NCBI GenBank assembly: GCA_951406725.2
Contig: OX597829.1
Location: 6,758,001 to 6,822,000, forward strand
DNA from: Octopus vulgaris
Taxonomy: Eukaryota
Direction: 5' to 3'
Length of the DNA: 64,000 nt
A program made the position numbers and the translations under genes. Shown in pieces: positions 5,439-57,487 of the stretch (positions are counted from its first letter, which is position 1; every line of letters starts with the position of its first letter). The notes beneath the pieces were generated by a model. That model was not told the origin of the DNA. It saw only the letters and a program-made list of their open reading frames with translations, and made no database searches.

Positions 5439-5640
5439 GGTAACAGTAGAAGTAGTAATGATGGTAGTAGTAATAGTTGTAGTGGTGATAGTAATAATAG
5501 TAGTAGTGATGGTAATGATAGTGGTAATGATGGCAATAGTGGTGATAATAACAGTGGGGTTGATGATGGGAACAGTAACGACAGAAATATAGTAGCAACG
5601 GTAATGAAGAAGATAACCCTAGAAGGGCCATTAACATGTA
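4770..5640 (+). repeat. Low-complexity (AAC/AGT/GGT) region forming an N/S/G-rich open frame just upstream of the PLE RT
   Basis: ORF 4770..5696 is dominated by trinucleotide repeats. Confidence 0.6.
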
Positions 5641-6625
5641 TACCCACTCCTTTGACATTCAATTCTTCAACATATGTGACAAATCTTACTGCATGAGCCG
5701 GATTTACCCGACAACATTACCCTTCAACAAAAGGGTCAACATCCCAAGACATACTAATGACCATATGGAAGCACAGTTCACTATAGCTAGGACCAGACTT
5801 AGACAGGTTTTAGAACTATACACTAAGAGACAGAGACAGAATAAGACAGAGGCCCAACAACTCGGGGTTAAACCTGCATGTAGCCTACATAAACTCATTC
5901 AGCGCACAAGGAATGGAGAGGTGGTATGCCTTCCCACAGATAAGTCCGGCAGGATGTCAATAGACAGCTTACCGAACTACATCCAGGCAATGCAACCTCA
6001 TATCGCCAATACAAAAGTAACAATTTACAGGCGCATGAGGAGAGAGAAAAGGTCCTCAACGCCCACATGATGATGTGGACAATTGTTCTGGGACCCCAGA
6101 AACGCACAGTTAACAATTTCCAAGCCTGGAACAACGATATCCCGGCACTGTATGGACTTTGCAAGGACCATAAAGTAACCACTCCACTGACCCTGTAGCA
6201 GGACCACCAACAAGACCAGTCTGTGGAGCGAATATCGGTAGCAATTACAGAATCTCCTATTTCCTTTCAATGATCATACGCCGTATAATCCGGATGTCAC
6301 CTGATGTTTGTGACAGCACGGAAGATCTCCTCAGCAGGATCAACGACTGTAACAACACTTGCGACCTGACAGAATGTATGGTTGGTAGCATGGATGTGGT
6401 ATCCCTATACCCATCGATCGACGTGGATTTTGCGGTGGAAAAGTGCGTGGAGATGATCAACGAGAAGAAGGTGGAGTTCCGCAGTGTCAACACAGAGGAA
6501 CTGGTCCTCCTACTTAGACTGATATATGACAACGAATACCTACATAAACATGATCTTAGTAGTTTCTGCCCTAGTAGACGTTTAAGAGGTAGACCACCCA
6601 TAATTACTTCTATGGCTAGTCAACA
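5640..6625 (+). pseudogene. Penelope-like element reverse transcriptase, N-terminal half, frameshifted and 3'-truncated
   Basis: Motifs VVCLPTDKSGRMSI, PALYGLCKDHK, PPTRPVCGAN and MVGSMDVVSLYPSID match the PLE RT DKG, LYGLPKxHK, PxRP and SxDVxSLYxxI motifs. Split over ORFs 5636..6070 and 6270..6647. Confidence 0.9.
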
Positions 6626-6924
6626 ACGAACTTATAATGTTATGTGAAACAGCTGTAAGTCAAATTTTCTACATTAAAGAAATATGTAATGACCATTATT
6701 CATGCCGTGTCTTGTATATCACTCTTTGAAAAAAATCATTTTAACCGCAACACAACTATGGATTTACATTATAGAATGATGATGAACAATTACTGCGGAT
6801 CTTGCTACGAAAATGCACTGAGTTCTTTACTAATGTAAACAGTATTGCTAGCCTGGTATACAGAAAGCTTGGAAAATATTTTGCTCGGATTGATAATTCC
6901 TCACTAACACACACACACATACAG

Positions 6925-8639: not shown

Positions 8640-9480
8640 GTTTATGGTTGAGACTCTAGTATGCTTTACTTTTCAATTTGCATAATCACTTCTCTACTAG
8701 GCAATTCTATCCCTGCCAGGAATTGTTCTTTACCTCGTTTCAGTTCCATTACATCACACTTTTTGTGTCCGAATTCCATCTTAATATCAATACTAAAACA
8801 GTGGACCGTGTTCACCAAGGAATTCGCTTGCACCTCATTCTTACCATTTAGCTTCAAATCATCAATGAAAATGAGGTGGTTAATTCTTTGAAATTTTCTC
8901 TTTAGCTGATATCTCAGGTACATTTTGTTCAACACCAAGGTTAGAGGAATCATACAGTAAACTAAAAGCAATTGAGATAAGCTATCTCCTTGGAAAATTC
9001 CCTTCCTGATTCCCAGGATACTCAAGCTTTGTCCGTTCGATGTCAACTCAGTTTTCCAACCCACCATTCTTTCCTTCAGAAAACATATTGCAATTCCAAA
9101 CAAATCTAAGCACTCTATGAATCACGGATTTGGAATCATATCGTAAGCTTTGCGGTAGTCAATCCAGGCCTTTCCCAAATTTGTTGTCCTTCGCTTACAA
9201 TCTTGCATTACCACATTATCTATTAAAAACTGGTCTTCAGTACCTCTGCATTTCCTCCTATAAAATTTTTGTTCCAACGATAAGATGTCCTTAACATCAA
9301 GAAATTTCTACATTTTTTCTAAAGTCCTTCCTGATTGTAATTTCCATATTAATGGAAAAGAAGAAGTTGGCCTATAATTTTCGGTTGTGTTTCTTTTCGA
9401 TATATCTTTCAGGCACAACACTGTTCTTTTGGTCAACCCACTCCGGATTTCTTCACCATCGATCTGCATAATCGAATATA
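8640..9480 (-). pseudogene. R4/Dong-clade non-LTR retrotransposon RT fragment
   Basis: ENYRPTSSFPLIWKL, WIDYRKAYDMIP, GIFQGDSLSQLL, INHLIFIDDLKL, FSIDIKMEFGHKKC; interrupted by stops and frameshifts. Confidence 0.88.
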
Positions 9481-20865: not shown

Positions 20866-20878
20866 AAAAATGTGTGAC

Positions 20879-20984
20879 GCTTACAGCACTAGGTTTCCCA
20901 AGCGGTCACCCACCTAAGTACTAACTAGGCTCGACGTTGCTCAACTTCGGTGACCGGACGAGAACCGGTGTTTCTACGTGATAT
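20879..20984 (-). pseudogene. 5S rRNA-like copy lacking about 10 nt at the 5' end
   Basis: Minus strand ATATCACGTAGAAACACCGGTTCTCGTCCGGTCACCGAAGTTGAGCAACGTCGAGCCTAGTTAGTACTTAGGTGGGTGACCGCTTGGGAAACCTAGTGCTGTAAGC follows invertebrate 5S rRNA, with internal promoter A-box and C-box regions. A T5 run lies 8 nt downstream. Confidence 0.9.
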
Positions 20985-21099
20985 ATGCAGAAGGAGATAT
21001 GTTTAAGAATTTACAAAAAATTGGCGAGGAATAACTGACCTGTCTGACATTTTCTCTCTTGTCTGTAGCTAAGGAATGCTTGCTATTTTAAGGGATAGG

Positions 21100-21927: not shown

Positions 21928-22208
21928 AACAACAAACAAGATGAGGGAAAATTTCCGTCAATTTTAAATAATTTAAACTATGTACATAATTTCTCATCTC
22001 TTAAATATAGAAATGAACATCATTATTAATTCACAATTAACGTGAAGTCTTTCTTAGAATTTTTTCTCACTAGCCCGATTTCAGCCGCGTGTATATTTTA
22101 GCTGGAGCTTTTGGTAGTTTTTGAAGGTATTGGCACTTCAAGCATACTGGAGAAAGGCCGTTTTCGCCCGATCTCTTTTGATATAATATATATATATATA
22201 TATATATA

Positions 22209-22933
22209 AAGTGCACATTACCAGGATGGCGACAAAGTGCCGACGACTGGATGGATGGATCCTAAGAACATTCAGAACCAGAGATAAGGAAACCATGATG
22301 GTCCTCTGGCGGACATTCGTCCTCAGCCGCCTGGATTACTGCTCACAGCTATGGTCATCCACCAGTGTGAAATTAACAGCGGACCTTGAAGCAATCCAGA
22401 GAAGATTCACAAAGAAGATCGTCTCTTTGCAACAGCTCAGATACTGGGAAAGGTTGAAACAGCTAAGACTCTACACCCTGGAGAGAAGACGGGAGAGGTA
22501 TGCAGTAATATATATCTGGAAGATCCTGGAAGGAATTGTGCCAAATTTTGGCATTGTTAGCTACACCAATGCTAGAGCGAGACGACACTGCATAGTGCCA
22601 AAGATCCCAGCAATGCCATCACGCTTCAGGACCAGCTACTGCAACAGCCTGGGTTTCAAGGGCCCACAGCTTTTTAATATTCTCCCAAAGAGTCTGAGGA
22701 ACTTGCACAAAGATGTAGTGTTTTTTAAATCAAAGCTGGACCTCTTCCTGTCAAGAGTCCCAGATGAACCTACCTGACGGCAAGAGGTGCGAATGAGAGT
22801 AGCTATATCAAACTCCATTCTTCACCAAGTGCCACATATTAGAGGAGGCTCTTCGTAATAACAGTGTAGCACAAAACGGCGGTACATCAGCATGGCCGCA
22901 GCTCTGAGCTGAAACAAGAAAAACGAAAAACGA
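22209..22933 (+). mobile_element. 5'-truncated CR1/L2-group LINE (ORF2 C-terminus plus 3' tail) inserted in (TA)n
   Basis: ORF 22211..22777: GWILRTFRTRD, FVLSRLDYCSQLWS, LEAIQRRFTK, LRLYTLERRRER, FKSKLDLFLSRVPDEP. Tail has a stem-loop and gaaaaac repeats. Confidence 0.92.
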
Positions 22934-23449: not shown

Positions 23450-23740
23450 TAAAAAAGGAGAAATAAGCCAATAAGCTATTTTAAAACTTTGAGCGAGATG
23501 CAAAGAGTAGCATTACGGAATCGTAACATATATAGTTGCCAATCGAATGTGGCGTCATATGCAGACCACTGCTTCTGACATTTGTAGCCCCAGGAAGGCA
23601 TCTCCTCCAGCTGGCTATCTACACACATTTTGTGTCCGATTAGTATTTTCGAAGGGAGTAAATAGCTGCTATCTCTAGCTTTACGTGATGCACACAGACT
23701 CGAGATTTGGGGTTGTAACCCGTCCTCAACGTGTGTAAGT
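23450..23740 (-). mobile_element. Diverged monomer of the 352-bp hammerhead repeat family
   Basis: tagccccaggaaggcatctcctccagctggc...tgtgtcc...agtattt and cacacagactcgag...cgtgtg align collinearly with the 55851-56867 unit. Confidence 0.8.
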
Positions 23741-35283: not shown

Positions 35284-36090
35284 ACTCGGCTAAACTAAAT
35301 GCAAAAGAAATAGACAAAGAAAAATCCCAGCAATTGTTGAGAAGCTCAGGACTCAAAGCAGAAACTGAATAATTTTTAATTGCAGCACAAGACCAAAGCC
35401 TCCCCACCAGAAATTACCAAAAACATGTAATGAAAAACAAAAAACATAACAAGTAAGTGCAGAATATGTGGAGATGGACAAGAAACAATAAATCATATTA
35501 TCTCTGCCTGCCCAGTCCTGGATAAGAAGGAATATACGACAGAGTTGGGACCTACATACACTGGAAGCTATGCCAACATTGTGGAATAACAACAGAAAAA
35601 AGATGGTATAGGCACACACCAGAAAAGGTCACAGAAAACGAGAAAGCAACCATACTCTGGGATATGCCAATACACACAGATAGAGAAATTAAGGCGAACA
35701 GGCCAGATATAGTTGTCAGAGCTCAAGAAGAAAAAATGATTTCTAATTGATGTATTAATACCAGCAGATGACAACGTTTCGCTAAAAGAAATGGAGAAAC
35801 TTTCAAAATACAAAAACCTGGAAATGGAGGTAACTTGAATGTGGAATCTAAAAGCAGAAACAATTCCTATCATTGTAGGTGCATTAGGCATGATAAAAAA
35901 ATATTCAGACAAATACATTACAAAAACACCAAGACTTATAAATATATATAACATACAGAAAATTGCACTACTAGGCACCGCACACATCCTACGCAGAACA
36001 CTTTCCATACAGTAACCATCAAAGCATCACAACAAATCACAACACATACCCAAGGCACACAGAGCACGTGATAATAAGACTACTGAATAC
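35284..36090 (+). mobile_element. 5'-truncated R4/Dong-clade LINE (CCHC knuckle plus restriction-like endonuclease and 3' UTR) in (TAA)n
   Basis: Manual translation: AAQDQSLPTRNY, KCRICGDGQETINHIISACP, ILWDMPIHTDREIKANRPDIVV, EKLSKYKNL, IPIIVGALG, IQKIALLGTAHILRRTL, with stops. Dong elements are known to target TAA repeats. Confidence 0.92.
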
Positions 36091-55803: not shown

Positions 55804-56059
55804 GTAATCATACATACATACATACATATATACATATACATATATATATGACAATGATAAATATCAAAGTGAGTTATATACAGTAGCGGTAACACATCGT
55901 GACGTATATTTGCCATCTCAATATGGCTACCCCTAAGGGTGAATGCTACTGTAGTTTTTAGCCCCAGGAGGACACACTCCTCCAGCTGGCCATAGACACA
56001 CTTTCTGTGTCCTGTCAGTATTTGCAAAGGAAGTCATCCTTCCCGTTCAACTTATGATA

Positions 56060-56104
56060 CACACGGACTCGAGTTTCGAAGTATTGACCTCTCGTCAGCG
56101 TGTG
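56060..56104 (-). ncRNA. Type I hammerhead ribozyme (array copy 1)
   Basis: CACACG CTGACGA GAGG TCAATA CTTC GAAA CTCGAG TC CGTGTG. Confidence 0.92.
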
Positions 56105-56411
56105 ACAATCATAGTTGTCGGCGAGAATTAGATTTCCTTCACAAATACTTATACTTTTTCCAGCGTCCACTGTCGCTGATATTGAAAAAGTGAAATCAAA
56201 CAATGATAAATATCAAAGTGAGTTATATACAGTAGCGGTAACACATCGTGACGTATATTTGCCATCTCAATATGGCTACCCCTAAGGGTGGATGCTACTG
56301 TAGTTTTTAGCCCCAGGAGGACACACTCCTCCAGCTTGCCATAGACACACTTTCTGTGTCCTGTCAGTATTTGCAAAGGGAAGTCATCCTTCCCGTCTTC
56401 AACTTATGATA

Positions 56412-56456
56412 CACACGGACTCGAGTTTCGAAGTATTGACCTCTCGTCAGCGTGTG
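56412..56456 (-). ncRNA. Type I hammerhead ribozyme (array copy 2)
   Basis: Identical motif to copy 1. Confidence 0.92.
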
Positions 56457-56763
56457 ACAATCATAGTTGTCGGCGAGAATTAGATTTCCTTCACAAATAC
56501 TTATACTTTTTCCAGCGTCCACTGTCGCTGATATTGAAAAAGTGAAATCAAACAATGATAAATATCAAAGTGAGTTATATACAGTAGCGGTAACACATCG
56601 TGACGTATATTTGCCATCTCAATATGGCTACCCCTAAGGGTGGATGCTACTGTAGTTTTTAGCCCCAGGAGGACACACTCCTCCAGCTGGCCATAGACAC
56701 ACTTTCTGTGTCCTGTCAGTATTTGCAAAGGGAAGTCATCCTTCCCGTCTTCAACTTATGATA

Positions 56764-56808
56764 CACACGGACTCGAGTTTCGAAGTATTGACCTCTCGTC
56801 AGCGTGTG
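56764..56808 (-). ncRNA. Type I hammerhead ribozyme (array copy 3)
   Basis: Identical motif to copy 1. Confidence 0.92.
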
Positions 56809-57237
56809 ACAATCATAGTTGTCGGCGAGAATTAGATTTCCTTCACAAATACTTATACTTTTTCCAGAGGTCAATACTTCGAGAGGTCAATACTACGAGA
56901 GGTCAATACTTCGAAACTCGAGTCCGTGTGTATCATAAGTTGAAGACGGGAAGGATGACTTCCCTTTGCAAATACTGACAGGACACAGAAAGTGTGTCTA
57001 TGGCCAGCTGGAGGAGTGTGTCCTCCTGGGGCTAAAAACTACAGTAGCATCCACCCTTAGGGGTAGCCATATTGAGATGGCAAATATACGTCACGATGTG
57101 TTACCGCTACTGTATATAACTCACTTTGATATTTATCATTGTTTGATTTCACTTTTTCAATATCAGCGACAGTGGACGCTGGAAAAAGTATAAGTATTTG
57201 TGAAGGAAATCTAATTCTCGCCGACAACTATGATTGT

Positions 57238-57282
57238 CACACGCTGACGAGAGGTCAATACTTCGAAACTCGAGTCCGTGTG
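57238..57282 (+). ncRNA. Type I hammerhead ribozyme (array copy 4)
   Basis: Same motif on the plus strand; predicted cleavage after GUC at 57276. Confidence 0.92.
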
Positions 57283-57487
57283 TATCATAAGTTGAAGACG
57301 GGAAGGATGACTTCCCTTTGCAAATACTGACAGGACACAGAAAGTGTGTCTATGGCCAGCTGGAGGAGTGTGTCCTCCTGGGGCTAAAAACTACAGTAGC
57401 ATCCACCCTTAGGGGTAGCCATATTGAGATGGCAAATATACGTCATATATATATGTATATATATATATATATGTATATGTATGTATG

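Follow-up and report, generated by a model that had tools for sequence, protein, structure and literature searches.

What produced three copies of one ribozyme helix at the joint between two inverted arrays in the genome of Octopus vulgaris? The joint lies in a stretch of 64,000 nucleotides of contig OX597829.1 (assembly GCA_951406725.2, positions 6,758,001 to 6,822,000), which is called the window here and whose own numbering is used below. In the preliminary description of this stretch, the repetition was read as the footprint of an RNA structure: a reverse transcriptase would have stalled at the core of a hammerhead ribozyme and re-primed repeatedly, and the joint would support an RNA intermediate.

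The insertion is a 352-nt hammerhead retrozyme that lies within a TA microsatellite and consists of two arms in head-to-head orientation. The unit is in tandem, with 2.9 units on the minus strand and 1.6 units on the plus strand. The left arm (55851–56867), the sense strand of which is the minus strand, runs from a 5' end at unit position 267 to a 3' end at unit position 230, and the right arm (56895–57445; 551 nt, plus strand) runs from unit position 335 to 181, where unit position 1 corresponds to 56913. The two 5' ends meet at the joint, and both 3' ends run into TA repeats; in this single insertion the 3' ends are 49 nt apart in the unit. The right arm is an inverted repeat of 56249–56799 (551-bp arms with a 95-nt spacer). 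Since the units are 98–100% alike, the insertion is young. An (AT)5 run is present at the left end (55840–55849), and the identical run starts the right flank (57445–57454). These runs are a candidate 10-bp target-site duplication, although a microsatellite cannot prove one. Beyond (AT)5, the mirror symmetry of the flanks extends for just 6 nt, a length that 7 of the window's 123 AT runs also reach; on this ground, an inverted flank duplication was rejected. Before the insertion, the site was likely a short palindrome made of (AT)5 plus six mirrored bases on each side (55834–55849 and 57445–57460), of a kind not rare here.

Each full unit carries one type I hammerhead, and four cores are intact: three on the minus strand (56060–56104, 56412–56456, and 56764–56808) and one on the plus strand (57238–57282). 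The match to Rfam RF00163 was 30.4 bits (E 4.4e-05), below the gathering score of 34, and no hammerhead in the window matched at the gathering threshold. Inside the units, no frame of at least 110 amino acids was found, except one chance frame running into the microsatellite. The unit has an AT content of 57.4% (GC about 43%), and its circular fold is predicted to be stable (−117 versus −82 for shuffles). From these features, the unit appears to fit the non-LTR retrozymes, which have a tandem period of 150–450 bp, a hammerhead per unit, no coding capacity, and a GC content under 45–50%. As far as the available passages on animal non-LTR retrozymes go (PMC7229834; bioRxiv 10.64898/2026.07.22.740005), the octopus unit is like them in its tandem arrangement, the single type I hammerhead of each unit, the short palindromic helix III, the low GC content, and the lack of a coding frame, and the units of mussel and axolotl are similar in size. 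It differs in its host, in the head-to-head insertion with two arms, and in the stuttered joint. Tandem hammerhead units are the subject of the retrozyme passages at hand (PMC7229834, PMC4209133, bioRxiv 10.64898/2026.07.22.740005), and joints are not described in them. A search of viral and metagenome contigs for the pattern of family members gave 0 matches.

The layout of the insertion resembles that of Penelope-like elements. In the accessible portions of PMC8557442 and PMC3846280, insertions of these elements are described as a partial tandem with an adjacent inverted, 5'-truncated copy, at TA targets and with duplications of 8–10 bp, and self-priming on an antisense template is proposed for their head-to-head joints. 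According to the available part of PMC11167929, both strands are cut by a purified Penelope-like protein, which also extends them from two sites within the RNA. The head-to-head layout, with a partial tandem and an adjacent inverted, 5'-truncated copy, is shared with the endonuclease-bearing elements treated in these excerpts (PMC8557442, PMC3846280, PMC11167929); the TA target, the candidate duplication, and the two 3' ends offset by a tail may correspond as well. Unlike those elements, the octopus unit is without an open reading frame, and its offset is 49 nt versus 30–40 nt in the reported cases. The joint itself is a direct triple repeat, whereas the rotifer joint, as reported in the available text, is a palindrome. 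A Penelope-like reverse transcriptase likely made the retrozyme insertion from an RNA template.

At the joint, stretches of 15, 16, and 16 nt occupy 56866–56912, which amounts to 32 bases beyond a plain join. The first copy of helix II (56866–56880, plus strand, 15 nt) begins with a 2-nt AG microhomology to the left arm (56866–56867). The second (56881–56896, plus strand, 16 nt) is entered via the CGA at 56880–56882, and the third (56897–56912, plus strand) is the native helix II of the right arm, with a core lacking CUG. The repeated piece corresponds to helix II plus two core bases of the type I hammerhead. A maximal-match parse against the 352-nt unit gave a first segment at 56866–56882 (unit 338 to 2), a second at 56880–56894 (unit 336–350), and a third beginning at 56895 (unit 335 onward); the CGA triplet is common to the first two. 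Tandem Repeats Finder (TRF) detected a period of 16 at 56862–56914, with 3.3 copies and 91% matches. Bases 16 nt apart agree at 31 of 33 positions, and such a repeat appeared in none of 3000 shuffles of 56700–57100. The parse and TRF confirm in the assembly the joint as it had been described earlier, with three copies of about 16 nt, AG shared with the left arm, and loss of CUG. Furthermore, the segment parse supports the earlier idea of repeated re-priming through the CGA triplets on both sides of helix II. The stutter is a single, well resolved event that looks real, and its confirmation comes from the assembly only.

In the second copy, there is a T-to-A change at 56895. This A is the base found there in the native CUGA core, and it disrupts one pair of helix II. 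At the substitution rate of the array, chance mimicry of this native base has a probability of about 0.001. The second and third copies hold core bases from further upstream, which would be missing after a plain AG join; the stutter was therefore made from an intact core. It was likely formed with such a core at hand, at or near the time of joining. Plain slippage after insertion was rejected for the same reason. Run-off at a self-cleaved RNA end was also rejected: the cleavage site is after unit position 12, and the stops are at unit 335–338.

The competing mechanisms were weighed by judgement. With about even confidence, we favour iterative templated insertion during the end joining of two cDNA ends, which is predicted to be of the polymerase-theta type. 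An endonuclease would cut both strands around (AT)5, and each of the two 3' ends would serve as primer for a reverse transcriptase that starts inside a circular or multimeric RNA, at unit 230 for 2.9 rounds and at unit 181 for 1.6 rounds. Next, the left cDNA end might use AG to pair either close to where the right cDNA has its 3' tip or with an upstream copy of its own. After 15 nt had been copied and released, the new CGA would re-anneal at the same tip and 16 nt would be copied; the CGA would then re-anneal once more, this time productively. The terminal base of the right cDNA would be retained as a mismatch and be fixed as the A at 56895. According to this proposal, the repetition of helix II is due to its place next to the cDNA end, with a CGA triplet on either side, and not to its folding.

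All three primings are within 4 nt (unit 336–339) of the native end of the right arm (335), the microhomologies run 2, 3, and 3 nt, and the template is 0–20 nt from the joint. The last joint seems to be the only place where end joining could keep a base of the right cDNA, and the A at 56895 sits there. In the sections of PMC7165422 at hand, polymerase theta is described as starting its scan at the 3' terminus and abandoning synthesis primed by short microhomologies, after which a longer second one is used; it leaves templated insertions of 3–30 bp, and longer ones over several rounds. First-round tracts are rarely over 10 bp there, and the typical templated insertions are AT-enriched. The octopus joint shares with the insertions of those sections (PMC7165422) the copying of DNA by the break within about 30 bp, the 2–3 nt priming, and the several rounds, and differs from them in its rounds of 15–16 nt, the lack of AT enrichment, and the exact threefold register. 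Such rounds are long, and the piece is 56% AT versus 57% for the unit. As these are tendencies only, the long tracts without AT enrichment lower the case for membership in the polymerase-theta class and still allow the mechanism. In addition, end joining takes two extra steps to give the T-to-A change (the mismatch is kept and then fixed), compared with one step for slippage of a reverse transcriptase. There are parallels among other retroelements: L1 inversion junctions carry end-joining microhomology in the available part of PMC11702581, and excerpts of PMC11702581 and PMC11371274 report both end-joining and snap-back junctions in L1 and R2. The inserts in these R2 and L1 junctions (same excerpts of PMC11371274 and PMC11702581) were likewise copied from DNA beside the break and primed by microhomology. 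A specific polymerase or template is not assignable from one sequence.

These considerations divide the earlier claim of an RNA intermediate. The insertion as a whole points to an RNA origin, through its tandem hammerheads, its TA-embedded 3' ends, and its Penelope-type layout. The stutter by itself is no proof of an RNA template, because DNA-templated re-priming on cDNA yields identical letters. The T-to-A change was considered as proof of an RNA-templated direction as well, and this argument was dropped, since a terminal mismatch kept in end joining gives the same base.

A doubtful alternative to end joining, in line with the preliminary description, is that the reverse transcriptase met a barrier at unit 335–338 on the RNA, moved its cDNA end back by 16 nt to pair through CGA, as telomerase does, and made helix II two more times before an AG-mediated join. 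About a third of the weight given to this slippage on RNA goes to the ribozyme fold or a bound protein as the barrier, and the rest to an RNA end or a collision. It explains the A at 56895, so improbable as a chance change, in one step, by a one-base overshoot extended as a terminal mismatch. Penelope reverse transcriptases are relatives of telomerase, and one such ribozyme is protein-assisted, according to the source portions available. With each slip, a hybrid of 16 bp (about −17 kcal/mol) would be lost and just 3 bp gained; the price for the DNA model is similar, but there it has a precedent.

The barrier that slippage on RNA needs does not seem to be supplied by the fold. Four of the five cores and all five cleavage sites of the insertion were copied without a scar, and the stutter is at the joint only. 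The pairing probability of helix II was about 0.01 in the circular unit, the linear unit, and the cleaved monomer, as predicted by folding programs, which disregard tertiary contacts and bound protein. Helix II alone was predicted to have −0.8 to −1.7 kcal/mol. Its cDNA was predicted to form no hairpin (0.0 kcal/mol), and the sense DNA strand a weak one (−1.4). Furthermore, the stops at unit 335–338 would be on the 5' side of helix II, which would already be unwound, not at the 3' foot of the helix; this is the wrong side for a block by structure. Strong stems are predicted elsewhere: unit 48–66 (56960–56978, plus strand) is one strand of the strongest, its partner being unit 281–298 (e.g., 57193–57210), and unit 57–64 pairs with 281–288 at a probability of 0.93–1.0. 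A long imperfect self-complementarity, between unit 3–68 and 277–343, exceeds that of all 500 shuffles. The ribozyme structure as the cause of the stall, on which the reading as a footprint of the ribozyme fold depended, is therefore not supported by the clean cores, the low pairing probability, the position of the stops, and, with limited power, the lack of recurrence described below.

Other copies of the family were sought in public sequencing runs. The contigs of four of the 24 listed runs (11,014 contigs) were aligned on 56800–57178. Of the 24, seven are presumed to be RNA and are outside the four, and none is recorded as RNA that contains the sequence. The four runs are probably from other individuals (0.79 was the best share of words); X1 was read as far as 80% and X2 as far as 76%, and contigs lose rare variants. 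Depth over the middle copy was zero in all four runs, and no second stutter of like kind was seen in their family contigs, where the power is limited. In many relatives the core reads CUGAUGA and does not offer the CGA match, and the native joint of this core was present in 6, 5, 3, and 1 contigs. Sixteen joints were collected (15 tabulated and one from a separate table, with 431 loose ends left out): one of native continuity, seven from left to right arm, two to the opposite strand, five same-direction skips, and one of a further kind. The skips, some of which resemble diverged sequence, were excluded from the inversion count. The seven left-to-right joints, which come from three of the four runs, are read as head-to-head joints of other family copies; the two opposite-strand joints come from one run.

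The nine joints of the inversion type give 11 right-arm breakpoints, of which one is in the ribozyme, compared with 1.3–1.5 expected. The enrichment at the ribozyme core anticipated in the preliminary description is thus not apparent in the contigs of the four runs, a sample of low power. Seven of the 11 are at unit 43–76, near the strongest stem (P about 0.005, for an interval chosen afterwards). Both ends are near this stem in three of the seven left-to-right joints (intervals 56955–56988 and 56826–56867, which are unit 43–76 and 240–308). Penelope-type inversions might be biased by sequence complementarity, as far as a small sample and an interval picked post hoc can suggest. By chance, one breakpoint of two would fall in the ribozyme with a probability of 24%, and in the helix II stretch with one of 10%. 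Two other family joints do terminate in the ribozyme, which favours slippage on RNA and counts against end joining. One is a jump from 56978 to 56901 with five letters between, present in all four runs, which leads from the CTGA at unit 63–66 into helix II; it is probably one old locus and perhaps a template switch via the identity of CTGA with the core. The other is an opposite-strand joint that ends inside the ribozyme at 56913. An old relative of the unit in the window (23453–23735), which loses similarity at helix I, is a further counterpoint to end joining.

A more specific form of copying on RNA, which we consider improbable, would be telomerase-style repeat addition by a Penelope-like reverse transcriptase in vivo. 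The protein-bound hammerhead core would be the template boundary, the 16-nt helix II would be re-added after a 3-nt realignment, and one base would be read past the boundary. Telomerase repeat addition copies the same short piece of template again and again, with a short direct repeat at its limits. DRT2 reportedly shows template jumping and repeated copying of one short template stretch. Both of these are programmed and recurrent; the octopus stutter, in contrast, is one event, not seen in other copies in the four runs.

It is also unlikely that the stutter is an artefact of assembly or consensus in the middle of the 551-bp palindrome. No contig of the four runs crosses the junction, and depth was zero over 56878–56890 in all four, a gap that does not prove absence. 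Inverted structures of this sort trouble assemblies, according to the passages at hand of PMC8557442, and two small deletions in the leftmost unit are of the kind that long reads make. All three joints, however, show either template-consistent microhomology or a native base, and a fold-back read is excluded because the two flanks do not mirror each other. The family does have real head-to-head joints; the runs are probably from other individuals and the insertion is young. It should be mentioned that the leftmost unit (55851–56077) has one 2-nt deletion, one 1-nt deletion, and one substitution, none of them in the right arm, and that the second unit has one substitution, at 56337, absent from the right arm. 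These left-arm variants may be copying errors, later mutations, or consensus errors. An origin of the right arm entirely by snap-back copying from the left cDNA is disfavoured: the variant at 56337, a single site, is not mirrored at 57357.

Later template switching during replication of the palindrome, in which a nascent strand altered a simple junction by borrowing the intact core of the left arm (56782–56799), is very unlikely: 551-bp arms with a 95-nt spacer can in general form hairpins, but two or more switches would be needed with plain slippage excluded, and the arms have no other rearrangement.

The element and its head-to-head layout are of known kinds, and the stutter is one event in such an element. 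In a literature search that covered few subscription papers and whose scope was the main texts rather than the supplements, a possible home of junction examples, no report was found of repeated helix copies at the joint of a Penelope element or a retrozyme, nor of octopus retrozymes. As to how Penelope-like elements build their head-to-head insertions, this very young and fully resolved insertion shows the order of joint events base by base, and the many such joints of the family lend themselves to a catalogue. Scars of the polymerase-theta type would mean that host end joining finishes these insertions, as for L1. If the telomerase-like reading is true, the joint would be a fossil of repeat addition in the sister enzymes of telomerase and would bear on the origin of repeat addition.

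Several other features of the window may be mentioned. A frameshifted and truncated Penelope-like reverse transcriptase is present at 5579–6647 (plus strand), with its best relatives, 85–90% alike, in Octopus vulgaris, so the host genome likely harbours such elements; the fragment had no sequence match to the 352-nt unit. Frames at 8666–9121, 22187–22777, and 35568–36026 resemble, by eye, fragments of LINE-type reverse transcriptases, and a Pfam search of the reverse transcriptase fragments in the window gave no useful match. The old unit relative at 23453–23735 (minus strand; unit 326 to 245) has a decayed hammerhead and an end near unit 245 beside a TA repeat, and its similarity is lost exactly at helix I. 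Finally, a sequence resembling 5S rRNA (68.6 bits), probably a dispersed copy or a pseudogene, is located at 20878–20994 on the minus strand.
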